Below are positions 2,640-22,957 of a stretch of 24,000 nt of DNA, piece by piece (the stretch's first letter is position 1; each line of letters starts with the position of its first letter). The notes under the pieces are model-generated. The model was not told the origin of the DNA. It saw only the letters and a list, made by a program, of their open reading frames with translations, and did no database searches. The position numbers and the translations under genes were made by a program. This DNA comes from Candidatus Heimdallarchaeota archaeon (GTDB lineage Archaea; Asgardarchaeota; Heimdallarchaeia; Heimdallarchaeales; Heimdallarchaeaceae): contig JAUWEG010000002.1 of NCBI GenBank assembly GCA_030608385.1, forward strand, positions 28,879 to 52,878, read 5' to 3'.

Positions 2640-4181
2640 ATGAACCAAGAAATTGTAGTTCTAGACGGAGATTCCTTAACTATAGATTCTTTGATCGAAA
2701 TTACACGATTTAGAAAAAAAGTTAAAATCAGTGAGGAAGGAACAAGAAAAATAAAAGAAGCAAGGGTAATTATTGAAGCTAAACATGATAAAAACGAAAC
2801 TATTTATGGTGTATCTACAGGTATTGGAAAACTGTCCAATACAATCATTTCTCCTTCTGAAAGAGAAATTCTTCAAAAGAATTTGATCAAATCACATAGC
2901 ATTGGATTTGGTCCTAATCTTCCCGATGAAATAGTTTTAGGTGCCATGGTTATAGAGTTGAATTCATTTTGTAGAGGAGGGAGCGGTGTTCGAATAGAAA
3001 TTACTGAAATGCTTGAAAAACTGATTAATGAGAGAATCATACCTCTTGTACCCAGTATAGGCTCTCTGGGAGCTAGTGGGGATCTCTCACCTCTTGCATA
3101 TATAGCTAGAATTTTGATTGGAGAAGGAAAAGCAAAGTTAGATGGTAAAGTACTCAAAGGTTCCGAAATTCTTGCTGAACTTGATTTGTCTCCTATAGAA
3201 CTTAAAGCTAAAGAAGGATTATCATTAATTAATGGAACACATGTACTAACTTCTTTTGCAGCACATGCTGTTTCTGATTCTATGAATATTTTAGAAAACT
3301 CAGTTATTACAGTTGGTTTAACTTTGGAAGCCTTCGAAGGCAATATTAGTGCATTTTCCTCTTTTATAATGGATTTACGACCACACGTAGGACAAATGAG
3401 ATTCGCTAAAGCTATTTTGGATATTCTTAAGGGCAGTGATTTGCTAAGTAATCAACCAAAAAGAATTCAAGATCCTTATTCTATCAGATGTTCTCCACAG
3501 GTTCATGGAGCGATACTAGATGTTGTAGAGCACTGCAAGAATCTAGTAGAAATTGAAATTAATTCAACAACTGACAATCCTCTAGTCTGCTTAGAAACTT
3601 CAAAAGTTGTTTCTGGGGGAAATTTCCATGGAGAACCTATAGGTCTTGCTATGGATTATTTGTGCATAGCTATGACAGAATTAGGAAATATCTCTGAAAG
3701 AAGGGTAAACCTTTTACTAGATTCAACAATATCAGGACTTCCATCTTTCTTGATACAAAAACCTGGTTTAAACTCAGGTTTAATGATGATACAATATGTA
3801 GATGCAGCGATAGCTGCTGAAAATAAAATATTAGCTTCTCCTGCTTCAATCGATAATATATCAGTTTCAGCTAATCAAGAAGACCATGTTTCTATGGGTC
3901 TCACTGCAAGCAAGAAAGCGTATCAATTAGTCAAGAATGTTGTGCAAATGATAGCCATTGAATTTTATACTGCATATCAAGCATTAGGATTTAAAGAAGA
4001 TTTGAATAATGTTTCTGAAGCTGTACAAGAGATATATGAAATAGTAAGAAAAGATATTCCTCCATTGAAGGAAGATAGATTCTTTGATGAAGAAGTGAAA
4101 TGGATTTCTGAAAGAATAGATAATCAAGTATTTACTAAAATGGTTAAAGATAAAATGGGGCGTATTTTAGGTGATAATTAG
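2640..4181 (+). CDS. MIO-dependent histidine/aromatic amino acid ammonia-lyase family protein (paralog 2)
   Basis: 513 aa. Contains GSLGASGDLSPLAYIA (ASG triad), YGVSTGIG, LSLINGT, QDPYSIRCSPQVHG, GGNFHGEP and NQEDHVSMG, which are closer to canonical HAL blocks than paralog 1. It is divergent from paralog 1 across a 164-nt spacer. Confidence 0.85.
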   Translation: MNQEIVVLDGDSLTIDSLIEITRFRKKVKISEEGTRKIKEARVIIEAKHDKNETIYGVSTGIGKLSNTIISPSEREILQKNLIKSHSIGFGPNLPDEIVLGAMVIELNSFCRGGSGVRIEITEMLEKLINERIIPLVPSIGSLGASGDLSPLAYIARILIGEGKAKLDGKVLKGSEILAELDLSPIELKAKEGLSLINGTHVLTSFAAHAVSDSMNILENSVITVGLTLEAFEGNISAFSSFIMDLRPHVGQMRFAKAILDILKGSDLLSNQPKRIQDPYSIRCSPQVHGAILDVVEHCKNLVEIEINSTTDNPLVCLETSKVVSGGNFHGEPIGLAMDYLCIAMTELGNISERRVNLLLDSTISGLPSFLIQKPGLNSGLMMIQYVDAAIAAENKILASPASIDNISVSANQEDHVSMGLTASKKAYQLVKNVVQMIAIEFYTAYQALGFKEDLNNVSEAVQEIYEIVRKDIPPLKEDRFFDEEVKWISERIDNQVFTKMVKDKMGRILGDN

Positions 4182-5038
4182 TGAAAATTTCTGTAATCGG
4201 TGATTGTCATGGCAGCAATGCAAACTTGCATCGTATTCTTCGAAAAATAAGAAAAACAGATGCTCTCTTTATTACAGGAGATATTGCAGGAACCATATCC
4301 TATCGTTTGGTTCTAAAGTCTATTCTCAAAAGCAAGAAAATCTCCAGGGAAAAATATACAGAATTGGTTTATGATAAGTATCTTCCCCAATTTATCGAGT
4401 TTCAGAGAAAATCTACAAGAAAAATTTTCAAGATACTCTCAAAAGCAAGTATTCCTGTTTTTTATACTCATGGCAATAGTGATTCCGAAGAAGTTATAGA
4501 AATTTTCAAAGAATATTCTGAAAGCATTCCTCAGTTCTATTATCTAGGAGATTCAACCGTTAAACATGAAAATCTGCTAGTAGTAGGGTATGGATTTTGT
4601 TCTCCAGCTGAATATAGAACACCATTTCAAACACCTGGTGAAAAAGACAAGGAAGAAATATCCAAAGACTTGAGTAAACTTGAAAATAAAATTCTGAAAT
4701 ATGAAAAAAATAAAACGGATCTTCTTATCGGTTTATTTCATGAACCTCCTAAGGACACAAAATTAGATTATATTGGATGGTGTTCTATTCATTCAGGAAG
4801 TGAATTAATTCAAAACCACACTCTCAAAATTCCTTATGATTTGATTTTTGCAGGACACATTCATGAATCACAGAATTATGACATACAAGGAGAAACAATT
4901 TTAGTAAATCCAGGTCCTCTTGTTAATGGAAAATGGGCTATTGTTGATACTGATAAAAGAACCGTTTCTTTGAGAAAAATACCAATAGTGCTCTCTATCA
5001 AAAGTCTAATTTATCGCAGCAGAGAAACCTTCAAGTGA
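4181..5038 (+). CDS. Calcineurin-like metallophosphoesterase
   Basis: 285 aa with the ordered motifs ISVIGDCHG, ITGDI, THGNSD, GLFHEPP and AGHIHE. The GTG start overlaps the upstream TAG stop by 1 nt (TAGTG at 4179-4183). Confidence 0.7.
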   Translation: MKISVIGDCHGSNANLHRILRKIRKTDALFITGDIAGTISYRLVLKSILKSKKISREKYTELVYDKYLPQFIEFQRKSTRKIFKILSKASIPVFYTHGNSDSEEVIEIFKEYSESIPQFYYLGDSTVKHENLLVVGYGFCSPAEYRTPFQTPGEKDKEEISKDLSKLENKILKYEKNKTDLLIGLFHEPPKDTKLDYIGWCSIHSGSELIQNHTLKIPYDLIFAGHIHESQNYDIQGETILVNPGPLVNGKWAIVDTDKRTVSLRKIPIVLSIKSLIYRSRETFK

Positions 5039-5114
5039 AATCTTAATGATATGACCAAAAATTTAATAAAGATTCAATTTTACTGTAATTTACTCAAAAG
5101 TAGTAAAAAGAGAG

Positions 5115-6257
5115 ATGTATATGATACCTGTTGTTGATGTTGACATTAAAGAACCTGAATTGAAAGCAGTTCAAGATGTAGTTAAGAGCAAATATCTTGT
5201 TGAAGGTAAGAATGCGAGATCGTTTGAGGAAAAATTTTCTAAGTTTAGTGGAGCTAAATTTACTTCAACTGTTGTAAATGGAACATGTGCTTTACACCTA
5301 GCTATGGTTGCTCTGGATATCGGTCCCAAGGATGAAGTAATCACAACCCCTTTTACATTTGTTGCATCTTCTAACACAATTCTCTTCTCTGGGGCTATAC
5401 CAGTATTTGTAGATATAGACAGAGAAACATACAACATAGATCCAGAAAAAATTGAAGAAAAAATCACTGAAAATACAAAAGCAATAATGCCAGTTCATAT
5501 TTTTGGAAATCCATGTGACATGAAAGCAATTATGGACATAGCTGAGGATCGAGATTTAATTGTGATTGAAGATTGTGCACAAGGTCACGGTGCAACAATT
5601 GACGATACTCATGTCGGGAATTTTGGAAGTATTGGATGTTTTTCATTTTATGGAAGCAAAAATCTAGTAGGGGGAGAAGGGGGAGCAGTTATAACAAATG
5701 ATGAAGAATTAGCTGAAAAAATAAAAAGCATAAAGAATCACGGAAGAAGCCCTGCGGGAGGATACGCGCATTATTTCATAGGATTTAACTATCGGATGAC
5801 AGATTTGACTGCAGCTATAATGAATGTTCAAATGGATAGAGCACAAGAAATACTATCAAAGAGACATGATACAGGAGATAAATATAGAGAGGGATTGAGT
5901 GAACTAGAAGATTTAAGAATCCAAAAAGTTTTTTCTGGTCATCAACATTCTGATTATATTATGGCACCTGTTATTTTAAACAAAAAGTTTTCACAAAATG
6001 AAGTTATTGAGTACTTGAAAGGCAAAAATATTGGGTCTAGAGCTATTTACAATAAGCTTTCCTATCAACAACCTTGCTATTTAGATCTATCAAAGTGGCA
6101 TTTATCAAGAGTTATTGATTATCCAGATTATTCAAAAATTAAATGCTCAAACTCCGAGTTTGTAGCACAAAACCACTTTGAAATTCCAATGGTTACGTCT
6201 CTAACAGATGAATCTATCACATATATAATAGAAACGCTTAGTGAGTTTTTCAATTAA
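5115..6257 (+). CDS. DegT/DnrJ/EryC1/StrS-family PLP-dependent (sugar) aminotransferase
   Basis: 380 aa. Contains FEEKFSKFSGAKF..VVNGTCALHLAMVALDIGPKDEVITTPFTF, PVFVDID..TYNID, TKAIMPVHIFG, VIEDCAQGHGA and FSFYGSKNL (PLP lysine), which is the family's typical layout. Confidence 0.85.
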   Translation: MYMIPVVDVDIKEPELKAVQDVVKSKYLVEGKNARSFEEKFSKFSGAKFTSTVVNGTCALHLAMVALDIGPKDEVITTPFTFVASSNTILFSGAIPVFVDIDRETYNIDPEKIEEKITENTKAIMPVHIFGNPCDMKAIMDIAEDRDLIVIEDCAQGHGATIDDTHVGNFGSIGCFSFYGSKNLVGGEGGAVITNDEELAEKIKSIKNHGRSPAGGYAHYFIGFNYRMTDLTAAIMNVQMDRAQEILSKRHDTGDKYREGLSELEDLRIQKVFSGHQHSDYIMAPVILNKKFSQNEVIEYLKGKNIGSRAIYNKLSYQQPCYLDLSKWHLSRVIDYPDYSKIKCSNSEFVAQNHFEIPMVTSLTDESITYIIETLSEFFN

Positions 6258-10279: not shown

Positions 10280-10591
10280 ATGACCGCTATTTCCCCTCCC
10301 GATGAGATTGATAATTTGTATAACGTGGCTTTATGGATGCGCTCTACAGTACAAGCTTATCAAGATGGTACAATTAATCGCAAACTCACTTCAGGAATGG
10401 CAAAAAAAGTTCTAAGAAAGATAAAGAGCTATATACCAACACAACAAGAAAAAGAACACAAAGAAGCCATTGAAGATCTCTGTATCTCTCTAAGTACTAT
10501 TGACAGAGCAGAGGGTAGTTTTGAAAAGTTTTATTTAGATAGTCTCATAGAGGATTTGGAAAGAATAGCTAAACTATTAGAAGAGGAGTAA
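10280..10591 (+). CDS. Hypothetical all-helical protein, translationally coupled to the downstream small GTPase
   Basis: 103 aa. Its last codons (GAGGAG TAA) double as the Shine-Dalgarno for the GTPase ATG one nt later. No recognisable motif. Confidence 0.5.
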   Translation: MTAISPPDEIDNLYNVALWMRSTVQAYQDGTINRKLTSGMAKKVLRKIKSYIPTQQEKEHKEAIEDLCISLSTIDRAEGSFEKFYLDSLIEDLERIAKLLEEE

Positions 10592-10592
10592 A

Positions 10593-11129
10593 ATGAGTAA
10601 AATTCAACCAGATTACAACTACAAAATTCTATTATTGGGATCCGCTGCTGTTGGTAAAACAAGCTTAGTACAACGATTTGTTCACGACAGATTTGATGGT
10701 TCCTACCTTATGACTATCGGCATGGAACCGTCTGAAAAACACATAGATTTAGAAGATGGAACAAGAGTTGCTCTTTCTATCTGGGATTTAGCAGGGCAAG
10801 AAAGATTTCGTTTCATCCGACACACATTCTACAAAGGGGCAAGAGCAGCATTACTAGTTTATGATTTAACAAGAGCTGCAACTCTCAAAGATGTTCAAAA
10901 GTGGGAAAAGGAATTTGTAGATAACTGTGGTAAAGATGTAATCAAAGTTCTTGTTGGAAATAAAGAAGATTTAAAAAATCAAATTGCTGTTTCAAAAAAA
11001 GAATATGAGGCAGTTCACACAAAAATAAAAAGCCACTACAGCATCATAACAAGTGCGTTAACTGGTAATCAAGTAGAAGAAGCATTCACTAACATTGCAC
11101 AATTATTAGTCAATCAATCAAAAAAATAA
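10593..11129 (+). CDS. Ras-superfamily small GTPase, Rab-like
   Basis: 178 aa. G1 is LLGSAAVGKTSL, G2 is the Thr in YLMTIG, G3 is WDLAGQERF, G4 is GNKEDL and G5 is TSAL. It is collinear with eukaryotic Rab over the whole length. There is no C-terminal Cys (ends NQSKK). Confidence 0.85.
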   Translation: MSKIQPDYNYKILLLGSAAVGKTSLVQRFVHDRFDGSYLMTIGMEPSEKHIDLEDGTRVALSIWDLAGQERFRFIRHTFYKGARAALLVYDLTRAATLKDVQKWEKEFVDNCGKDVIKVLVGNKEDLKNQIAVSKKEYEAVHTKIKSHYSIITSALTGNQVEEAFTNIAQLLVNQSKK

Positions 11130-12437: not shown

Positions 12438-14057
12438 TTACCAAAACCATTTTTCTTCTTTTAAAAGCTGTTGAGCAATTCGATGGCAGATTCTTTCCCA
12501 GAGATATCCTATTAGCTCTACATCACCTAGATTACAATATGGACAACCTGTTGCTCTACGACTTGTTCTGTTATGCGGAGATGTTTTCCATTCATGATCT
12601 GGGTCCTTATCACATTTCCACCAATATCTTTTAGCAGACCCTGCAACGACTTTATCAGGTGTAATCTTCCCATTCTTTTCTTGGTACCATTCTTTAGCTA
12701 GGTCAGGATAGAGTGAGGCTAAGGAATTAGTGACTGAAACCTTCTGTCCAGCACAAAAAGGACAACCACCTCCTGAACTTCTGATTCGATTAGATAGCGA
12801 TGTTTTCCATTCATGGTCTGGACCCTTATCACACTTCCACCAAAATAGTTTCCCCGAGCCTACAACGACTTTATCTGGTGTAATTTCCCCATTCTTTTCT
12901 TGGTACCATTCTTTAGCTAGGTCAGGATGGAGTGAGGCTAAGGAATTAGTGACTGAAACCTTCTGTCCAGCACAAAAAGGACAACCACCACCTGAACTTC
13001 TGGTTCGATTAGCTAGTGTTGCTTTCCACACATGGTCTGATCCTTTATCGCACTTCCACCAAAAATATTTGCTGGATTTTGCTGTAATTTTATCTGGAGT
13101 AATTTCCCCATTCTTTTCTTGGCGCCATTCTTTAGCTAATTCAGGATAACAAGAAGCTAAGGAATTAGTGACTGAAACCTTTTGCCCAGAACAAAAAGGA
13201 CAACCTCTTTTTTGATTCGTTCTTGTATTTGGAGTTGCTTTCCACACATGGTCTGGTCCTTTATCGCACTTCCACCAATATAATTGTCCCGAGCCTGCAA
13301 CGACCTTATCAGGTGTAGTGTCTCCATTCCTTTCTTGGTGCCATTCTTTAGCTAATTCGGAATAACAAGAAGCTAAAGAATTAGTGACTGATAGCTTAAG
13401 GTTTTGGCAGAAAGGGCATCCTGATTTAGTTTTTCCGGTCCTATGTCCTACTTTTGTTTTCCATATGTGATCTGGGCCCTTATCACAGCTCCACCAATAT
13501 GCTTTACTTGTGTTAAATTTCACCATTTCTGGAGTAATTTTTCCATTTTTCTCTTGAAACCATTCATCAATTAATTCAGGAAACACAGTTGACAGAGAAT
13601 TTGTTATAGAAAGCTTTTTTCCTTCACAAAAAGGACATCCGGTCTTTCTCTTTCCTGTTCTATTTCTTATTTCTGTTTTCCATATGTGATCTGGGCCCTC
13701 ATCACAGCTCCACCATACGCTCTTGTGAGAACCAGTTATAACCATGTTTGGTTTTAATTCTTGATTTTTTGTTGGATGCCATTGTTTTGCTAGTCCTGGA
13801 TGAATTGATGCTAAAGAATTAGTGACAGAAGGTTTAAGACCGCGACAAAAGGGACATCTTGTTCTCTTGTAAGTTCTTGCTTCTACTGTGGTTTCCCATA
13901 CATGATCTGGTCCCCTATCACATTTCCACCAAACTTTCTTTTTTGACCACATAGAGGTGTTTTCTGGTTTAAAATCCCCATTTTTTGTTGGATGCCATTG
14001 CTTTGCTAGTTCAGGAAAATCAATTACAAATTTGGGCTTATCTCTATTTTTTGACAT
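12438..14057 (-). CDS. Tandem-repeat zinc-ribbon (treble-clef-like, C-H-C-C) protein with 7 repeats
   Basis: 539 aa. Each unit reads about PELAKEW.QEKNG.ITPDKV...S....WWKCDKGPDH.WK.....R.....GCPFC.GQKVSVTNSLAS. From memory this resembles the Pfam family called probable zinc-ribbon domain (DUF4379), which needs confirmation. Confidence 0.75.
   Translation of the reverse strand: MSKNRDKPKFVIDFPELAKQWHPTKNGDFKPENTSMWSKKKVWWKCDRGPDHVWETTVEARTYKRTRCPFCRGLKPSVTNSLASIHPGLAKQWHPTKNQELKPNMVITGSHKSVWWSCDEGPDHIWKTEIRNRTGKRKTGCPFCEGKKLSITNSLSTVFPELIDEWFQEKNGKITPEMVKFNTSKAYWWSCDKGPDHIWKTKVGHRTGKTKSGCPFCQNLKLSVTNSLASCYSELAKEWHQERNGDTTPDKVVAGSGQLYWWKCDKGPDHVWKATPNTRTNQKRGCPFCSGQKVSVTNSLASCYPELAKEWRQEKNGEITPDKITAKSSKYFWWKCDKGSDHVWKATLANRTRSSGGGCPFCAGQKVSVTNSLASLHPDLAKEWYQEKNGEITPDKVVVGSGKLFWWKCDKGPDHEWKTSLSNRIRSSGGGCPFCAGQKVSVTNSLASLYPDLAKEWYQEKNGKITPDKVVAGSAKRYWWKCDKDPDHEWKTSPHNRTSRRATGCPYCNLGDVELIGYLWERICHRIAQQLLKEEKWFW
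12531..14018 (-). repeat. Seven in-frame tandem repeats of 216-219 nt (72-73 aa) inside the zinc-ribbon gene
   Basis: Units cover protein residues 14-85, 86-158, 159-231, 232-303, 304-376, 377-449 and 450 to about 509. The 54-nt string ggctaaggaattagtgactgaaaccttctgtccagcacaaaaaggacaaccacc occurs exactly at 12717 and 12936, an offset of 219 nt. Confidence 0.9.
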
Positions 14058-15061: not shown

Positions 15062-15454
15062 ATGACAACTGATGATGAACTGGAGAAAATTAAGCAAAGA
15101 AAAGCAAAAGAGTTAATGCAAATTGCTGAACAAAGAAAACAACGAATGGAAGAGTTGAAAGAAGCAAAAGAATCTCCAACAAGTATAGAAGAGAAAGATA
15201 AATTGGCATTAATGCAATATTTTTTGGCTCCAGATGCTTATGATTATTGGATTAATCTCTATGAGAATCTATCTAAAAAACCAACTGCAGAAACAATCTT
15301 CAAAAACGTGTTATATATGATTAAGATTGGTTTTCTTGAGGGAAAACAGATATCGAGATTAGGTGTCAAAAAGTTAGAAAGAGAAATAGAAGGGATTCCT
15401 TCCTCTATAACAATAAAAAGAAAGGGAGAGAAGGAAAAGAGGACAACTTATTAA
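15062..15454 (+). CDS. PDCD5/TFAR19-like dsDNA-binding protein
   Basis: 130 aa. A charged N-terminal helix (DELEKIKQRKAKELMQ) is followed by LMQYFLAPDAYDYWINL...KPTAETIFKNVLYMIKIGFLEGKQIS...LEREI...ITIKRK, which is collinear with archaeal PDCD5 homologues. Confidence 0.55.
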   Translation: MTTDDELEKIKQRKAKELMQIAEQRKQRMEELKEAKESPTSIEEKDKLALMQYFLAPDAYDYWINLYENLSKKPTAETIFKNVLYMIKIGFLEGKQISRLGVKKLEREIEGIPSSITIKRKGEKEKRTTY

Positions 15455-15563: not shown

Positions 15564-15800
15564 GTGAGAATAACTGTAGTAACAGCAATTGGTGGAGGAA
15601 AAATAGATTTAGATGTTGATCCACATTCAACAGTTGCACAATTAAAGAGAGAAGTTGCTAAAAAGAAGAAAATTCCTGCTAACACAGTCATTATAGTTTT
15701 CCATGGTAAGCAACTCGATGACAGTGAAATACTAAAACAAACAGGAATGATGGATGGCGATAAATGCTATCTTATTGCTAGAACTAAAGGTGGACTTTAG
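15564..15800 (+). CDS. Ubiquitin-like beta-grasp protein ending in Gly-Gly-Leu
   Basis: 78 aa. MRITVVTAIGGGKIDLDVDPHSTVAQLKREVAKKKKIPANTVIIVFHGKQLDD...YLIARTKGGL is collinear with ubiquitin (M.I.V.T..G..I.L.V.P..T....K......IP......F.GKQL.D), with a diglycine one residue before the stop. The start is GTG, with AGGTG 8 nt upstream. Confidence 0.8.
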   Translation: MRITVVTAIGGGKIDLDVDPHSTVAQLKREVAKKKKIPANTVIIVFHGKQLDDSEILKQTGMMDGDKCYLIARTKGGL

Positions 15801-15939: not shown

Positions 15940-16944
15940 ATGGATGGAGATGAGCGCTACTCAAGACAACAACTTATCCCAGGATGGGATCAACTAAAAC
16001 TTGACAATGGTTCTGTTGTTCTAGTGGGGGTTGGAGCAATAGGGAGCTATGTAGCTACTGTACTTGTCTCTTCAGGAATAGGGAAACTTACGATTATTGA
16101 TTTTGATACAATTGAAGTTTCGAATCTAAATCGACAATTATTGTTTAAAGACGAGGATGTTGGTAAATCAAAATCAGAAACAGCTGTACAAAGATTGAAA
16201 GAAATAAATCCCAATATCGAAATTGATTTTTATCATAAAAAGATGGAGAATATTTCTGCATCAGTTTATGAGCAAGCAAATGTCATAGTAGCATGCTTAG
16301 ATACTTTTATTGGAAGAAGATGGATCAATTCGATGGCTATTCGAGTAAAAAAACCACTTGTTATGGGGGGTATGTTTGCTTTCTTAGGTAATGCACAAGT
16401 AATTATTCCATATGAAACAGCGTGTTTTGAATGCCAGCCTTTGGTACCAGATGAAGAGTTAGCTCAAGCATGCTCTCCATTTGGGGATGAAAGGAAAAAA
16501 GAGAGAAAAGAAATTGATGCAGAGCCACCTTTACCAGCTGTTGCCACATTATCATCAATTATTGGGGGAATAATGGCTCAGGAAACACTAAAGTTAATTC
16601 TGGAATTAGGTGAAAAATTGGAAAATTATCTTTTCTATGATGGTCTTCATAATGCTACAACAATTCTAGAATTAGAAAAATCCAAGGAATGTCCAGCTTG
16701 TGGCGAGATGTACAAATTAGAACAAATCGAGTTTGTAGCGCTTCCAACTGAAACTGTAAAAGAACTCAGAATGAGATTAATGTTGACTTATGGGTTAGAA
16801 AAACCAGACCTAATGGTGCAAGGAAAACTGTTAGAGGTTGAATCATTACTTGAAGATGCACTGGATTCGAAAAAGGCTATTGTATTCGTTCTAGACAAGA
16901 ATTTAGCTCAACCAATCAAAATAGTTTTGCAATTATCTGAATAA
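15940..16944 (+). CDS. E1-like ubiquitin-activating enzyme (ThiF/MoeB/UBA adenylation fold) with a C-terminal extension
   Basis: 334 aa. Contains YSRQ, the VGVGAIGS nucleotide loop, DFDTIEVSNLNRQ, two CxxC pairs (CFEC 162-165, CPAC 251-254) and a lone Cys178 (QACSPFG) between them. About 80 aa follow the second CxxC. AAGGAG lies upstream of the ATG. Confidence 0.85.
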   Translation: MDGDERYSRQQLIPGWDQLKLDNGSVVLVGVGAIGSYVATVLVSSGIGKLTIIDFDTIEVSNLNRQLLFKDEDVGKSKSETAVQRLKEINPNIEIDFYHKKMENISASVYEQANVIVACLDTFIGRRWINSMAIRVKKPLVMGGMFAFLGNAQVIIPYETACFECQPLVPDEELAQACSPFGDERKKERKEIDAEPPLPAVATLSSIIGGIMAQETLKLILELGEKLENYLFYDGLHNATTILELEKSKECPACGEMYKLEQIEFVALPTETVKELRMRLMLTYGLEKPDLMVQGKLLEVESLLEDALDSKKAIVFVLDKNLAQPIKIVLQLSE

Positions 16945-16985
16945 TCTGATCTTTTTCGCTTTTCAAATGCAACATTTTTTAAACT

Positions 16986-18434
16986 TTGATTGGTATGAAG
17001 TTATTTAGAGAAATAATTAGAAAGGTGAACAAAATTTCCACAGACGATTTCCATCTTGCAAATGAAATGCAATTAGTATTCGATAAACAAATAAATTTCG
17101 AACCAGTTAGAGGTAATTTGAAACAATGGAAAGGCTATGTTGGAACAATAGAAGGTACTGAAATACCAATTTTTGCCAACATTTACATTCAGGATGGTTT
17201 CCCTGAAATACCTCCATTTGTTGATATTACTCCTAAAGTAAATCACCCTAATGTTGATGAAGATGGTACATTAAGTATGCGTCTTCTTGCAGAATGGGAA
17301 CCTAGGTATCATATTTATCAAGTTATGATTGATATAAAACAACTTTTCATCAATGTTCCTGCTAAAGCATACAAGACAAAGACTAAGAAACCAAAAGGGG
17401 AACAAAGATTTTCAACATTACCAAGAGCAACAATTCCTGTGAAGACAATACCTCAAGCATCTTTCGCAAGTATAAATCCAAGAATTGAGGAAGAAAGACG
17501 CTCCATTGACAAAACAATTGTCAATTATCAAGATAAAATAGAGCATATTTCCAGAGATATAGAAAAAGAAAGAAAAGCTTTATTGAAGGAAGGCGGAATA
17601 GCTGTACAAAGTAGAACTAAAGAGATTTCTATATCATTAAAAGAGGATTTGAGAGCTGAATCATTAGCTGTCCAAGATACTCTAGAAATAGTACAAGAAA
17701 AATTTGATGATGGCGATATGACTAATATTGATTACCTCAAATTACATAAAAGATATACCAAAAAAGGTTTTATAGCTGAGAAACAACTCACTCAAGTTAA
17801 AAGTAGCTCAAGTGGTGACATGACAAAAGCAGAAGAAAAAATATTGAATTTGGAAGCTGATCTGTTTGCTTCAATTGCAACTTTAGACAATCTAGTTCTA
17901 AGTTACGAAAAAAGTGAAATTGAGCAGATTGCTTATAGAAAACAACTTCGTGCTCTCATTAGAGGAATTTTCAAAACAAGATTAGAATTAGAAAAGATAG
18001 GCTTTAATTTAGATGATTTTGTGAAACGAGAGAATCTAAATAATAGATATCAAAAGGGAATCAAACAACTCATGGTTGTTGAAGGGGAAGAAACTGCAGA
18101 TACCAGTTCAATTCCATTTGATACCCTCAAGAAAATCCCATCTAAAACAGCTGATTTCGTTTCATCTGCGATTGAACTTATTGATTTAACTAGATTAAAA
18201 TCAGTAGCTAGAGCAGATCTCATAATTGCAGACATTGAAGAAATGATTCACATTCTGACAACATTTCCTTCAATACCAAAAGACCATTGGGTTATTGGAG
18301 ATATGAATAATTGGCGTGAAATTATAGGAAAATATAAGCCTCAGGAGATCATTAAAGAAGAAGATTGCGAAAAATTAGAATTTCAAGCAGCTCGTTGGTT
18401 AAATGACTTTCGAAGAGTATTGAAAGAACTTTAA
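16986..18434 (+). CDS. ESCRT-I-like fusion protein: N-terminal UEV/E2-fold domain, coiled-coil stalk, full Vps28 (core plus C-terminal domain)
   Basis: The UBC-fold block FPEIPPFVDITPKVNHPNVDEDGTLSMRLLAEWEP is comparable to the E2 consensus HPNI...G.ICLDIL...WSP, with Ser97 (AGT 17274-17276) at the Cys position. Residues about 170-280 are heptad-rich. Residues 281-482 are collinear with human VPS28: ADLFASIATLDNLVLSYEKSEIEQIAYRKQLRALI matches [35 protein letters not shown], and DLIIADIEEMIHILTTFPSIPKDHW...WLNDFRRVL matches PDLRELMETMHRMSHLPPDFEG...AYNAFNRFL. The likely real start is the ATG at 16995. Confidence 0.75.
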   Translation: MIGMKLFREIIRKVNKISTDDFHLANEMQLVFDKQINFEPVRGNLKQWKGYVGTIEGTEIPIFANIYIQDGFPEIPPFVDITPKVNHPNVDEDGTLSMRLLAEWEPRYHIYQVMIDIKQLFINVPAKAYKTKTKKPKGEQRFSTLPRATIPVKTIPQASFASINPRIEEERRSIDKTIVNYQDKIEHISRDIEKERKALLKEGGIAVQSRTKEISISLKEDLRAESLAVQDTLEIVQEKFDDGDMTNIDYLKLHKRYTKKGFIAEKQLTQVKSSSSGDMTKAEEKILNLEADLFASIATLDNLVLSYEKSEIEQIAYRKQLRALIRGIFKTRLELEKIGFNLDDFVKRENLNNRYQKGIKQLMVVEGEETADTSSIPFDTLKKIPSKTADFVSSAIELIDLTRLKSVARADLIIADIEEMIHILTTFPSIPKDHWVIGDMNNWREIIGKYKPQEIIKEEDCEKLEFQAARWLNDFRRVLKEL

Positions 18435-18498: not shown

Positions 18499-18813
18499 GT
18501 GAATTACTTGGAAAGAACTAGCTCTATTAACGAGATATTTGTTAACATTCGAAAAGAAATGTTTGAATTAATCAACATGATAGAGATTAAGATAGATGTG
18601 GGCTATATTCTTGAGGAATTAGAAGATATTTCATACGAAATTAAGAATTTAGGAGAAGAAGGGAAGCAAATCCATGAAGAAATGATGAATATTTACAATT
18701 CGTATTTTAACAAATATAAAAACAAACTTGCAGCTTTTCTTTCACCAAGGGAGAGCAGCTCTTTAACTGAAAAGATAAAGAAATGGCTTTTAGAATTATC
18801 AAACATTATATAA
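18499..18813 (+). CDS. Hypothetical small helical protein between the ESCRT-I and ESCRT-II genes
   Basis: 104 aa, predicted helical from composition. AGGTGA overlaps the annotated GTG, so an in-frame TTG at 18508 is an alternative start. No recognisable motif. Confidence 0.45.
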   Translation: MNYLERTSSINEIFVNIRKEMFELINMIEIKIDVGYILEELEDISYEIKNLGEEGKQIHEEMMNIYNSYFNKYKNKLAAFLSPRESSSLTEKIKKWLLELSNII

Positions 18814-18882: not shown

Positions 18883-19608
18883 GTGGGTTTAAGAGATATA
18901 GAGAAGAAGATCAAAATTAAGTCAGCTTTTCAAGTAAAAGCGGCAGAGCTAATGATTAAAGAATTAGAACAAATGATAAATAATATTAGCGAAGTCAAAA
19001 AACAACTGAAAAAGTTTGAGAAAAAATACGGTGATAAAATCTCTGAAAATAAAGATTATTATGATAAATTAGCAAATCTGAGAGAAGAACTAGGATTACC
19101 CACCGAAATTGGACGTTTTGACTGGAAAGAAACTCCAACTCTCAAAGATAAACTTACTGGAAAGGGCTTCTTTGATGTATTAGCTAATGAAATTCTTGAA
19201 ATAGGGCAACAGATGATATCAGAAAACGGTGGAATTATGGCCATCGGAGAACTATTCACACAGCTAAATAAAACTCGTCCTGGGAGGATGGTTTCAATTG
19301 ATGATATGTATCGATCCTTGGAGAAATTAATCAATACTCAATTAATCCCACCATATAGAGTGTTAGATTCAGGATTGAAGATTGTTGAATTTGTTCCTGT
19401 TGAGTTTAGTCCAGATCATGATGTTATTCTAAATTATGCATCCAGAGTTGGTTTTGTTACAAAGGAAGATTTACTCATGAGAACAAGTTGGACTGAAGAA
19501 CGAATAGATAGATGTTTACAATTCTTTGAAGAAAATAGCATAGCTCGAGTTGACAGGAGTTATTCTGAAGGCGTGAAATATTGGTTTCCCGGTTTAATGG
19601 GACTATAA
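18883..19608 (+). CDS. ESCRT-II EAP30-domain protein (Vps22/Vps36-like): N-terminal helix plus tandem winged helices
   Basis: 241 aa. GGIMAIGELFTQLNKTRPGRMVSIDDMYRSLEKL...LDSGLKIVEF...ILNYASRVGFVTKEDLLMRTSWTEERIDRCLQFFEENSIARVDRSYSEGVKYWFPGL follows the EAP30 pattern (GG.i.l.e.y...N..R....vSp.D...a...L ... w.D.......Y.F). GTG start with GGAG 6 nt upstream. Confidence 0.75.
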   Translation: MGLRDIEKKIKIKSAFQVKAAELMIKELEQMINNISEVKKQLKKFEKKYGDKISENKDYYDKLANLREELGLPTEIGRFDWKETPTLKDKLTGKGFFDVLANEILEIGQQMISENGGIMAIGELFTQLNKTRPGRMVSIDDMYRSLEKLINTQLIPPYRVLDSGLKIVEFVPVEFSPDHDVILNYASRVGFVTKEDLLMRTSWTEERIDRCLQFFEENSIARVDRSYSEGVKYWFPGLMGL

Positions 19609-19625: not shown

Positions 19626-20402
19626 CTAAAACACTTTATCAGCTTCAAACTGAATTATTGTTTTTTCTTTGTTTAACCAACGAGCAACTTTACGTTCTAC
19701 TAGCATTTCGCACACAATAACAAGATCATCAGCAGGCAAATTTCCCCAATTTTGTTCCAGCTGAGTTAAATCGTAAAGTGAGTGTATTTCAACCACTCTT
19801 CCAGTATCTATCATGAAGTCTACTAACGCATCTGCCCATTCTTCATTTGATTTCCAATAAATGCGAGCCCTTGTTTTTGTTTTCTCATCTAACCAACGAG
19901 CAATATTCTGTTGAACTAAATGATCAACGATACTTCTTACTTGTGCAAGAGTTAATCGCTTACCTAAATTTTTGTTATTGAAGGGGTGACCACTTCTCAA
20001 ATCGTTAATATTAATTATGTGAATCACAAAAATACGGGAGTAATCCAATACTATCGCAGACCAACTTTGGAGCCATGATTCAATTTGATCAGTTTTCTTA
20101 GGCTTGATATACATCCATGGCCTTTTTACCCATTCTGGAAGTTCTTCCTCAAATTCTAATTCAAGCATAGCCCTTTGATCTTTAGAGAGATCTTCTTTTA
20201 CAAAAATAGCATCAACAGGCAGAGTAGCTTTTAATTCTTCAGCTGTAATCTCCAAACCTTTAATACTAGCTTCAATTAATTTTAATTTCTCATCTGAAAT
20301 CTCTTTTTCATCTTTTAATTTTTTTAAATCTATTTCAGATGATTTCTCCTTCTTAGGCTTCTTCTTCTCAGTGGTGGACATGGATTTAACCTCTAAAATC
20401 AT
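19626..20402 (-). CDS. ESCRT-II Vps25-like protein (two winged helices) with a charged N-terminal extension of about 90 aa
   Basis: 258 aa. RPWMYIKPKKTDQIESWLQSWSAIVLDY...HPFNNKNLGKRLTLAQVRSIVDHLVQQNIARWLD...RARIYWKSNEEWADALVDFMIDTG...LYDLTQ...LVIVCEMLVERKVARWLN parallels Vps25 (F..QPN..TR..QL..W..LIL.Y ... F.N..I.R.L ... G.AEW.D ... I.W....EWA..I). The start overlaps the Vps4 stop (ATGA). Confidence 0.7.
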   Translation of the reverse strand: MILEVKSMSTTEKKKPKKEKSSEIDLKKLKDEKEISDEKLKLIEASIKGLEITAEELKATLPVDAIFVKEDLSKDQRAMLELEFEEELPEWVKRPWMYIKPKKTDQIESWLQSWSAIVLDYSRIFVIHIININDLRSGHPFNNKNLGKRLTLAQVRSIVDHLVQQNIARWLDEKTKTRARIYWKSNEEWADALVDFMIDTGRVVEIHSLYDLTQLEQNWGNLPADDLVIVCEMLVERKVARWLNKEKTIIQFEADKVF

Positions 20403-21553
20403 GCGCTGCCGAATTCTTCATTCCAGTTATCGTATTTTTCTATTTCATCATCACTTACAGAGGGGTTAATTGATTCAATTGCTTCAAGAAAATCATCTTG
20501 AGTTACTGCCCGAGCAGCTATTGAAGTATCTTCAATAGCTCCTGCCATGTCAAGTTCTCTGATTGGAGTCATGATTGCTTCTCTACATACCATTGCAATA
20601 TCAGAACCTGAATAACCTTCTGTAATTTCTGCTAGAACTTCGAAATCTGCATCTTCAGCTAGTTCAACACCCTTGGTATTGAAAACAAAAATAGCTTCAC
20701 GAGCTGGTAAATCTGGTAAAGGAATGTAAATCCTTCTCTCGAATCTTCTTCTGAATGCTCCGTCTATAGATTCAGGCATATTAGTAGCACCAACAGTAAC
20801 TATTCTGTCAGTTTCGGAACTCGATAGACCATCCATTGATGTTAAGAGCTCAGTTTTAACTCTACGCATTGCATCATGTTCTCCACCTCTGGCACCAGCT
20901 AAAGCATCAACTTCATCAATAAAAATAATACTGGGTTGTTTTTCGTCTGCTAATTCGAAAAGCTGTTTAACCAATTTTTCTGATTCACCAAGCCATTTTG
21001 AAATGATTGAGGATGCACTAACATTGAAGAAAGTTGCTTCTACTTCAGCTGCTGTTGCTTTTGCTAAAAGAGTTTTACCACAACCAGGGGGACCAAAAAG
21101 CAAAATACCTTTCCAAGGTTTTCTTGCTCCAGAGAATAAATCAGGTCGCATAAGAGGTAAAACAATAGCTTCTCTCAAGGTTTGCTTTGCGGTTTCTAGA
21201 CCTGCTATATCAGCTAAAGTAATATTTGGTTTCTCTGTAACGATTATATCAGATATAGCATTTTCTAATTTTTCTTCCTCATCATCACTTCCTGCTTTGG
21301 ATTTCCTTTCTTTTCTCTTCTCTAGAAGTTCCCTTAGTTCCCTTGCTCTACTAATGTACATATTGGCTTTCTTCTTAAGAGAACGAGCAACTTGAGGGTT
21401 TCTTTCAAATTTTATGGCTTTCATTAAAGCTTCAGCAGCATCTAAATAGTGTGGAATAGCTTCACTGTAGTTTTTTTCTTTATCAAAGGAATAGGCTTTG
21501 ACTGCAAAATCCCTTGCATGATCTATTAATCCTTGAGCAGACACGTGATTCAC
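20399..21553 (-). CDS. vps4: Vps4-type AAA+ ATPase with N-terminal MIT domain
   Basis: 384 aa. The MIT-like three-helix N-terminus reads AVKAYSFDKEKNYSEAIPHYLDAAEALMKAIKFE...KANMYISRARELRELLE. Also present are Walker A GPPGCGKT, pore loop SKWLGESEKLV, Walker B IIFIDEVD and second region of homology GATNMPESIDGAFRRRFERRIYIPLP. Confidence 0.9.
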   Translation of the reverse strand: MNHVSAQGLIDHARDFAVKAYSFDKEKNYSEAIPHYLDAAEALMKAIKFERNPQVARSLKKKANMYISRARELRELLEKRKERKSKAGSDDEEEKLENAISDIIVTEKPNITLADIAGLETAKQTLREAIVLPLMRPDLFSGARKPWKGILLFGPPGCGKTLLAKATAAEVEATFFNVSASSIISKWLGESEKLVKQLFELADEKQPSIIFIDEVDALAGARGGEHDAMRRVKTELLTSMDGLSSSETDRIVTVGATNMPESIDGAFRRRFERRIYIPLPDLPAREAIFVFNTKGVELAEDADFEVLAEITEGYSGSDIAMVCREAIMTPIRELDMAGAIEDTSIAARAVTQDDFLEAIESINPSVSDDEIEKYDNWNEEFGSA

Positions 21554-21678: not shown

Positions 21679-22329
21679 TTACTTATCTTCACTCATTTTC
21701 TTCTTTAATCCCTCAAGCTCAGCTTCAAGCTCTGATGTATCTTCTTCTTTGTCAGTTCCAACAGGAGTTGAAGGAAGACCACTAACATCAGGTAAGCTTG
21801 TTGTTGTACCTAAATCCATCTCAGCTTCTAACTGAGCTAACTGCTCATCAATAGCTGCATCATCTTCAAAATCTAGAATGCCTTCAGATAAGCTTGGATC
21901 AGATAGAGCTTCAGTCATCATTTCAATTTGATCTCTCTGTTCCATTACAGAATCCATAACACGTTCTGTTCTCTCAGGAGAAACGCTTTTGATTTTCTCT
22001 CCAACAACTTTTGTACCAAGTTCCATAGCTTTTACAGTCTCTGCTGTTGAAGTAGCTGTTTGTATACTATCTATCTGAGCTTGTAAATTCATTCCTGTGT
22101 TATGAACTGTATTCAGCCTTTTCATGAAAACGGCTCTTCTTTTTAGAGCTTGTCTTGCTCCAGCTTTATTACCAGCTTTTAGCATTTTTGAGGCTAAGAT
22201 TTTCTGTTCATCTGATTGTCTTTCAAGATTTCTTGCTTCTGCTTGTAATCTGTTTTGTTGTCCTTTGAGTGTGGATAATGCATCAGCATCTTCTTTTCTT
22301 TTTTTTCCAAAAAGCCAATTCTTAACCAT
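21679..22329 (-). CDS. ESCRT-III subunit, Snf7/CHMP4-like (Vps20/32/60 group)
   Basis: 216 aa, collinear with CHMP4: GARQALKRRAVFMKRL matches AALQALKRKKRYEKQL, IDSIQTATSTAETVKAMELG matches IEFQREALENANTNTEVLKNMGYA, and MDSVMEQRDQIEMMTEALSDP...EDDAAIDEQLAQLEAEM matches LMQDIADQQELAEEISTAIS.P...DEDELMAELEELE. AAGGTGA lies 6 nt upstream of the ATG. Confidence 0.85.
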   Translation of the reverse strand: MVKNWLFGKKRKEDADALSTLKGQQNRLQAEARNLERQSDEQKILASKMLKAGNKAGARQALKRRAVFMKRLNTVHNTGMNLQAQIDSIQTATSTAETVKAMELGTKVVGEKIKSVSPERTERVMDSVMEQRDQIEMMTEALSDPSLSEGILDFEDDAAIDEQLAQLEAEMDLGTTTSLPDVSGLPSTPVGTDKEEDTSELEAELEGLKKKMSEDK

Positions 22330-22342
22330 TTTTATTCACCTT

Positions 22343-22957
22343 TTAATCCTCTTCTCTTCTTCTTAATTTCTGAATTTCATCCTCTAAATCATCTGTTTGC
22401 ACTACACCAACTGTTGGTAATCCAGCTTGAGTGGAAACACCTAATTCAGCAGCTGTTTGTTCAATTAACCTATCGACTTCAGCTGGATCAGTATCAGCAA
22501 TCAGTAAATCGTCAATACCATCTTCAATAGTTCCGGTTGACTCTTCGATTCCATCAATGGAACTTTCCATATCTTGAATAACTCTATCTAAATCTGGAAT
22601 CTGTAATTGAGCATTTGCGATTCGTAAAGCAGAAGCAATACCATGCATTTCTTCAGCCATGCTTGCTGCAGTATCAGCTCGTTCTAATTTAAAGATTAGG
22701 CCATTCATACGCGAAACTAGTTTCTGATAACCAAATTCCCATCTTCTGTTGCGTACAATATCAGTAGCAAATAATCTTGCAGATTCCAAATCTCCTCGTT
22801 GGATGTTTTGTTTCATTTTCAACTGCATTTTGGATTCATCTCGAGAAAGTTTCCTTTGTGCTCTTTCTAATCTTCTTACAGTTAATCGAAGATTAATTAT
22901 ATGATCACGAGGACTCTTCTTTGTACCCAAAAGCCAACCCATAAAGTCACGGAACAT
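22343..22957 (-). CDS. ESCRT-III subunit, CHMP1/Did2-like (Vps2/24/46 group) with a C-terminal MIM1-like helix
   Basis: 204 aa. HIINLRLTVRRLERAQRKLSRDESKMQLKMKQNIQRGDLESARLFATDIVRNRR is collinear with CHMP1B [54 protein letters not shown]. The C-terminal DDLEDEIQKLRR resembles the MIM1 DELSQRLARLR. Confidence 0.85.
   Translation of the reverse strand: MFRDFMGWLLGTKKSPRDHIINLRLTVRRLERAQRKLSRDESKMQLKMKQNIQRGDLESARLFATDIVRNRRWEFGYQKLVSRMNGLIFKLERADTAASMAEEMHGIASALRIANAQLQIPDLDRVIQDMESSIDGIEESTGTIEDGIDDLLIADTDPAEVDRLIEQTAAELGVSTQAGLPTVGVVQTDDLEDEIQKLRRREED

Follow-up and report, generated by a model that had tools for sequence, protein, structure and literature searches.

Known UEV-Vps23-Vps28 fusions and the gene in the window

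[quoted passage not shown] Hatano et al. (2022, Nat Commun, PMC9192718) described HeimAB125_14070 of Candidatus Heimdallarchaeota AB_125, in which a Vps28 domain is fused to a structure resembling UEV-Vps23, complete with coiled-coil stalk and steadiness box. The protein lacks a Cys where the catalytic one would be expected, and parts of it, including the stalk region, were modelled by AlphaFold2 (AF2). Both the purified full-length protein and its isolated UEV could be cross-linked to the cognate ubiquitin with bis(sulfosuccinimidyl)suberate (BS3), and the V45D substitution in the hydrophobic patch of ubiquitin greatly reduced this cross-linking. Moreover, the protein and ubiquitin interacted in yeast two-hybrid assays, and the fusion was drawn as a dimer (PMC9192718). 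Lu et al. (2023, bioRxiv 10.1101/2023.07.25.550441) named such proteins 'UEV-Vps28', stated that they occur only in some Heimdallarchaeia, noted their co-location with ubiquitin and included the UEV in surface plasmon resonance measurements of ubiquitin binding. Here we analyse the corresponding gene in a 24,000-nucleotide stretch of DNA from a Candidatus Heimdallarchaeota archaeon (contig JAUWEG010000002.1), the whole of which is called the window below.

The gene product shares 87% identity over 97% coverage with HeimAB125_14070 (OLS31938.1, P0006 among our homologues). The two differ by point substitutions only, plus small differences in flanking accessory genes; both carry the motif NHPNVDEDGTLSMRLLAEWEP with an AGT Ser codon, and both loci have the same gene order from ubiquitin to the ESCRT-III genes. 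An initial annotation of the window had described the open reading frame (ORF) at 16986-18434 together with its two end domains, which translation and Pfam confirmed, and had left open whether the architecture had been reported before. It had: the UEV-Vps23-Vps28 arrangement is already known, with biochemistry on the 87%-identical orthologue since 2022. The window therefore adds one more member to a class for which the point was made on a near-identical protein in 2022-2023. The class itself matters in that it connects the recognition of ubiquitin with the recruitment of ESCRT-II in the archaea most closely related to eukaryotes, and hence bears on the origin of ESCRT-I. What the present analysis adds is modest: a survey of the HPN triad and the former Cys site, split sister genes that explain the fusion, a relic Vps28 start and a co-occurring small ORF with a Vps28 C-terminal-like predicted fold.

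We are confident that the gene is a Heimdallarchaeial UEV-Vps23-Vps28 fusion encoding an ESCRT-I protein orthologous to HeimAB125_14070, and this confidence extends to its function and origin as set out below. The parts of the gene are as follows, with helices (H) and strands (E) taken from an AF2 model that was built on an alignment of 26 homologues and has a mean predicted local distance difference test (pLDDT) score of 76.6.

16986..18434, + strand: UEV-Vps23-Vps28 fusion gene (ESCRT-I), 482 codons from TTG 16986
17040..17369, + strand: UEV (E2-variant) domain, residues ~19-128; helix alpha1, four beta strands, helix alpha2
17244..17252, + strand: HPN triad, His87-Pro88-Asn89, codons CAC CCT AAT
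17274..17276, + strand: Ser97 at the E2 catalytic-Cys position, codon AGT
17379..17474, + strand: Lys/Pro-rich disordered linker, residues 132-163; pLDDT <50, variable and indel-rich in the family alignment
17478..17591, + strand: stalk helix, residues 165-202 (H165-202), Vps23-type coiled-coil stalk
17637..17804, + strand: probable Vps23 steadiness-box helical hairpin, residues 218-273 (H218-241, H247-273)
17820..17822, + strand: Met279 (ATG) in the junction linker, aligned with the initiator Met of separate sister-lineage Vps28 genes
17826..17993, + strand: Vps28 N-terminal core hairpin, residues 281-336 (H281-308, H314-336), headpiece-forming
18117..18428, + strand: Vps28 C-terminal four-helix bundle, residues 378-481 (H378-403, H410-426, H435-448, H458-481); pLDDT 84-94

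The start codon is uncertain, TTG 16986, ATG 16995 and GTG 17025 all being candidates; translation from GTG gives a protein of 469 aa. Most fusion orthologues are called from the equivalent of GTG 17025, ATG 16995 is replaced by ATC in the AB_125 orthologue, and residues 1-18 of the longest version are predicted to be disordered (pLDDT <50). Between the window and AB_125, the nominally intergenic stretch 16945-17025 shows the same degree of conservation as the coding sequence. No NCBIfam model exists for the fusion protein.

A UEV domain with an intact HPN triad

Pfam UQ_con matched residues 35-123 of the protein (profile positions 16-110 of 140) with 44.3 bits against a cut-off of 27. Together with VPS28 at the other end of the chain this profile exceeded its threshold with an E-value of <=3e-9, and neither match is due to chance. 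The AF2 elements of the domain (H19-34, E38-41, E44-54, E61-67, E78-82, H110-123) make up an E2-like fold from which both C-terminal helices of E2 ubiquitin-conjugating enzymes are missing: UQ_con stops at position 110, leaving out the last ~30 positions, or C-terminal third, of the ubiquitin-conjugating (UBC) profile, and the model is disordered past residue ~128. A Foldseek search with the whole-chain model returned only E2 and UEV matches, namely E2s at target template modelling (TM) scores of 0.54-0.67 and the UEV-like domain of VPS37A (8e22) at 0.75. Because the N-terminal domain dominates these matches, the search is no structural test of the Vps28 half.

The motif NHPNVDEDGTLSMRLLAEWEP occupies residues 86-106, and phmmer alignments place Ser97 exactly on the catalytic Cys of solved E2s such as UBE2B (1jas, 'HPNVYADGSICLDIL') and UBE2D. 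Along with the UQ_con match and the codons of the triad and of Ser97, these alignments uphold the initial description of an E2-like fold with intact HPN and Ser in place of the catalytic Cys. The domain has the UBC core, HPN, Gly and Trp landmarks and active-site spacing of catalytic E2s (UBE2B/Rad6, UBE2D/UbcH5), but differs from them in the Ser, in a one-residue deletion between the Cys site and the conserved Trp, and in the absence of the two C-terminal helices. It also differs from human TSG101, whose UEV ('KHVDANGKIYLPYLHEW') keeps the His of HPN alone and has Tyr at the Cys site; the remark in the initial annotation that TSG101 UEVs lack HPN was thus essentially right. Judged by sequence, the window's UEV domain is nearer to E2s than to TSG101 (44 bits with UQ_con, 20.5 bits with the Pfam UEV profile, PF05743). 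Among 26 family members the UEV profile reached E <=1e-3 in 20, with a best value of 3e-7.

The HPN triad is invariant in the 43 cluster representatives of the fused family, whilst the Cys site is held by Ser in 40 of them and by Asn, Lys and Ala in one each. In the orthologue genomes the site can also be Val (GTT) or Asn (AAT or AAC). Thus residue 97, which the initial annotation had suggested surveying across Asgard loci, is mostly Ser, with occasional Asn, Lys, Val or Ala, and Cys was found in none of the representatives. Every Ser-bearing orthologue uses AGT or AGC and none has TGY. AGY is present at this site in more than 25 independent assemblies, and a sequencing error at Ser97 is excluded. 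Codons restricted to AGY, one step from TGY, would fit direct descent from a Cys codon, as would be expected of any UEV.

When the UEV-Vps23 part was used for an exhaustive HMMER search, about 40 representatives of stand-alone UEV-Vps23-like relatives, 180-320 aa in length, were obtained. HPN is complete in 16/40 and its His is present in nearly all; at the Cys site 14 different residues occur, with Ser in six and Cys in none. HPN without Cys is therefore common within this archaeal family and, contrary to what had been proposed from the window alone, is no special intermediate between a catalytic E2 and a UEV. Moreover, HPN retention does not track a nucleophile, because the site varies so widely while 16 of the 40 keep the triad, and these alignments clearly indicate that the residue at the old Cys site need not be one. 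The main texts searched on these proteins make no mention of HPN in archaeal UEVs or of the replacing residue.

One distant fused protein, P0076, was also recovered (445 aa, ~29% identity in the N-terminal part). It has the order UEV-Vps23-Vps28 and Met at the Cys site ('VHPNLSDSNRFMLKILQEWNH'), which suggests a wider distribution of the fusion, or a second or deeper origin.

Vps23-type stalk, probable steadiness box and Vps28

The region between the UEV and Vps28, previously taken for about 110 residues of generic heptad-rich coiled coil, resolves into distinct parts in the AF2 model and by Pfam. The disordered linker is followed by the stalk helix, the two successive hairpins (218-273 and 281-336) and the terminal four-helix bundle. 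The first hairpin coincides with the match of Pfam Vps23_core, which was found in 24 of 26 family members (best E-value 2.7e-9), and probably represents the Vps23 steadiness box.

The remainder of the chain was recognised as Vps28 over its full length. Pfam VPS28 covered residues 291-479 (profile positions 2-188 of 188) with 37.2 bits, above the cut-off of 24.5, and matched 26/26 family members. A profile of the C-terminal half matched, with its positions 3-70, the core of yeast Vps28 (2f66_B, 2f6m_B, 2p22_B and 2caz_B, E 3e-3 to 6e-3), and with its positions 110-203 the C-terminal domain of Xenopus Vps28 (2j9w_A, E 3.5e-4). The yeast matches appear weak but are consistent across four chains. 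Only the profile found Vps28; a single-sequence phmmer search of the C-terminal half against PDB sequences returned nothing relevant. Taken together with the AF2 helices, the profile and PDB matches support the earlier view that this half is collinear with the Vps28 core and four-helix C-terminal domain. In eukaryotes it is the C-terminal domain of Vps28 that docks to ESCRT-II.

The protein thereby contains, in the same order, the parts of eukaryotic ESCRT-I (Vps23/TSG101 plus Vps28): a UEV without the Cys and the last two E2 helices, stalk, probable steadiness box, Vps28 core and C-terminal domain. It differs in having one polypeptide instead of two, and neither Vps37 nor Mvb12, which are further subunits of the eukaryotic complex, was detected here.

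Distribution of the fused gene and its split sister loci

Homologues were sought among 5.8 billion proteins, and loci were scanned in species-representative genomes. The protein search gave 46 near-full-length homologues at 50-98% identity, all with UQ_con and VPS28, mostly labelled Heimdallarchaeota and falling into more than 40 protein clusters. Of the 34 loci from the genome scan, about 30 contain the same continuous ORF, including those on the closed chromosomes CP084166 and CP084167 (Candidatus Heimdallarchaeum aukensis and Candidatus Heimdallarchaeum endolithica). Synteny is conserved in the order ubiquitin, E1, fusion, small ORF, Vps22, Vps25, Vps4 and two ESCRT-III genes. Two members of the fused family bear non-Heimdall labels, L019 (record title Thorarchaeota) and P0045 (name Bathyarchaeota), at 50-68% identity. 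These labels are probably due to mis-binning of metagenome-assembled genomes or to mislabelling, and not to true occurrence outside Heimdallarchaeia.

A survey of fused and split arrangements, which the initial annotation had proposed, found the genes fused in 33 loci and split in four (L034-L037, 43-46% identity). In the latter a UEV-Vps23 gene is directly followed by a separate Vps28 gene in the same direction. In L034 the UEV-Vps23 gene (3899-4681) and the Vps28 gene (4647-5258) share 35 nt, which they read in different frames, and the start of vps22 lies at 5258. This split form, also seen in Odinarchaeota (Hatano et al. 2022), has homologous UEV-Vps23 and Vps28 parts, and differs from the window in having two genes where the window has one ORF. 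The Cys site of the split-locus UEV-Vps23 proteins is Ala, Ser or Asn, and HPN is often kept. Loci L034-L036 have neither the small downstream ORF nor the upstream pair of ubiquitin and E1 genes; the small ORF is weakly recognisable in L037.

In the alignment, Met279 of the window protein ('MTKAEEKILNLEADLF...') stands opposite the initiator Met of the L034 Vps28 ('MQRRQKDPLQVEADLY...'). Although the Gly/Ser-rich linker around it is variable, Met279 does not vary within the fused family, and no other of the 456 columns holds a start-capable codon in >=95% of sequences. In the window the Met279 codon is preceded by GGTGAC (17790-17819 region). Going by these alignments, the overlapping UEV-vps23 and vps28 genes of the sister lineages likely represent the ancestral state of the fusion. 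Most simply, two genes that were translationally coupled would have been joined by a change that restored the frame, with the old start codon staying in place. Met279 would then be a relic Vps28 start or possibly an internal start that is still in use.

Proposed function and alternative explanations

On the reading favoured here, the catalytic Cys and the two terminal helices of E2s are gone from the UEV, which retains the HPN loop for its structure, with Ser97 as a tolerated substitute for the lost Cys and not a nucleophile. Binding of ubiquitin would be non-covalent and would use ubiquitin's hydrophobic patch; this is experimental for the 87%-identical orthologue and may be expected of the window protein. 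The stalk helix, the steadiness-box hairpin and the Vps28 N-terminal hairpin would make up the stalk and headpiece of ESCRT-I, probably in dimeric form in line with the published model. The Vps28 four-helix bundle, if it behaves like its eukaryotic counterpart, would link the protein to the ESCRT-II subunits Vps22 and Vps25, whose genes lie just downstream. The whole would have arisen by merger of adjacent, overlapping UEV-vps23 and vps28 genes, with Met279 as the old Vps28 start codon.

Several points weigh against this reading. All of the biochemistry stems from the AB_125 orthologue, and binding of the Vps28 C-terminal domain to archaeal Vps22 and Vps25 is presumed by analogy with eukaryotes. 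Two of the expected profiles fall short in the window protein: Pfam UEV scores 20.5 bits (cut-off 27) and Vps23_core, at residues 221-263, scores 20.3 bits (cut-off 26.8). The predicted template modelling score (pTM) of the whole-chain model is low, 0.37, so that the model is uninformative on the relative arrangement of the domains. Lastly, Ser97 is strongly, if not absolutely, conserved in the fused family (40/43), which could reflect an unexplained constraint or simply shallow divergence.

That conservation also counts in favour of a different view of the site, in which the neighbouring E1 would load ubiquitin on Ser97 as a stable oxyester and the protein would act as an E2-like carrier, leaving ESCRT-I covalently charged; the initial annotation had named a stable oxyester at this Ser as possible in principle. 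Engineered E2 Cys-to-Ser mutants do form oxyesters; the Ser sits exactly in the catalytic-Cys column, HPN is invariant in the fused family (43/43), and the gene directly follows those for ubiquitin and E1, the place of an E2 in an operon. However, orthologues with Asn, Lys, Val or Ala, as well as the distant P0076 with Met, cannot accept ubiquitin there, and the rest of the protein is still conserved in them. The stand-alone relatives with their 14 different residues speak against it too, as does the missing end of the UBC domain. Moreover, the AB_125 orthologue binds ubiquitin through the hydrophobic patch without E1 or ATP, and separate E2s with the Cys retained are present in AB_125. The variable site, the missing UBC end and E1- and ATP-free binding together make the oxyester idea very unlikely. 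Hardly any weight attaches to the suspicion that the fusion is an artefact of a frameshift or of an assembly join, which the initial annotation had located between about 17500 and 17800. In sister lineages two neighbouring genes do overlap, each in its own frame, so a single-base error could create an apparent fusion. Nonetheless, the same continuous ORF is present in about 30 independent species-level assemblies, two of them closed, and in protein clusters numbering more than 40 (50-98% identity), which excludes such an error, and the full-length chain of AB_125 has been expressed and purified.

A further possibility would add to the favoured reading and not replace it, namely that the gene yields two products, the full-length fusion and a free Vps28 initiated at Met279. 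In its favour, no start-capable codon other than Met279 is invariant among 456 columns, and this Met lies within a variable linker and opposite the point where separate Vps28 genes begin. With loose spacing, GGTG, GGTGA or GGAGG precedes it in 19/25 unique sequences (76%) as against 29% at other internal ATGs, and the motif stands at canonical spacing in the divergent lineages L003, L019, L022, L023, L027, L029 and L030. On the other hand, the window's own clade has GGTGA at -6 to -2, whereas true starts (vps22, ubiquitin) have the motif at about -14 to -7. In a gene-wide control with strict spacing the junction column reached 0.39, below the 95th percentile of 0.61. Gly-Asp and Gly-Glu codons give GGTGA by themselves, and the sequences are phylogenetically related, so that the motif counts are not independent. 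The Shine-Dalgarno signal at Met279 thus appears equivocal, because the spacing is too short in the window's clade, and we regard a second product as rather improbable. Were it made, the fusion chain, free Vps28 and the small Vps28 C-terminal-like protein encoded next to them would constitute a multi-subunit ESCRT-I, an outcome to which we give the same low weight.

The small downstream ORF and the ESCRT gene neighbourhood

The genes around the fusion are listed below.

15564..15800, + strand: ubiquitin homologue, 78 aa (Pfam ubiquitin, 53.8 bits)
15940..16944, + strand: E1-like ThiF-family adenylyltransferase, 334 aa (Pfam ThiF, 210.6 bits)
18499..18813, + strand: conserved small ORF of the HeimAB125_14060 family (84-104 aa), 104 codons; no Pfam or NCBIfam match
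18883..19608, + strand: Vps22/EAP30 (ESCRT-II) (Pfam EAP30, 73.7 bits)
19626..20402, - strand: Vps25 (ESCRT-II) (Pfam ESCRT-II, 75.9 bits)
20399..21553, - strand: Vps4 AAA ATPase (MIT, AAA and Vps4_C)
21679-22329 and 22343-22957, - strand: two ESCRT-III genes of the Snf7 family (Pfam Snf7, 81.6 and 63.1 bits)

The small ORF belongs to a family with 45 homologues and lies directly 3′ of the fusion in 33/33 fused loci. NCBIfam holds no model for it, and the experimental papers cited above do not discuss it. AF2 predicts a four-helix bundle (pLDDT 91, pTM 0.80), whose best fold match in the PDB by Foldseek is the Vps28 C-terminal domain 2j9w (TM 0.67-0.70, probability 0.97-0.98), but with an E-value of 0.24, which is not significant. 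Four-helix bundles are a common fold. By sequence the ORF product resembles neither PDB sequences nor the C-terminal domain of the fusion itself (BLASTP, and hhalign with a probability of 0.85%). Since the sequence searches were negative, it is the predicted fold alone that points to the Vps28 C-terminal domain, and the model suggests that the ORF may encode a separate Vps28-C-like subunit. Some Asgard genomes have, beside a full vps28, a separate gene for a Vps28 C-terminal domain (Makarova et al. 2024, PMC10936438). The small ORF may be a case of this. The description of the fusion as a single-chain minimal ESCRT-I was therefore overstated, given that the published model is a dimer of the fusion and that an ORF with this Vps28-like predicted fold accompanies it in every fused locus.

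The ubiquitin homologue ends in ...TKGGL, one residue past Gly-Gly, which implies C-terminal processing before activation. In its hydrophobic patch it has Val45, at the position that the published binding test had altered. Directly upstream of the ubiquitin gene lies a Lys/Glu-rich ORF of 130 residues (15062-15454, + strand), which is conserved there in L001, L003 and L005. Its only match, to NCBIfam PRK04239 'DNA-binding protein', is weak and below threshold, with 26.7 bits where the cut-off is 98.

Further upstream, 12438-14057 on the - strand encodes a protein of 539 residues that consists of DUF4379 'treble-clef zinc finger' repeats, seven in number (431 bits). The AB_125 locus does not have it at the corresponding place, an amidohydrolase gene lying nearby instead. 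A Ras/Arf-family small GTPase gene (10593-11129, + strand) follows a 103-codon ORF, the pair spanning 10280-11129, and stands beside the ESCRT cluster in L001 and L005; in L003 a Roadblock/LC7 protein is encoded in the neighbourhood of the cluster. Lastly, two divergent paralogous aromatic amino acid lyase genes of the HAL/PAL family lie near the beginning of the window, at 952-2475 on the - strand and 2640-4181 on the + strand (524 and 575 bits, respectively).

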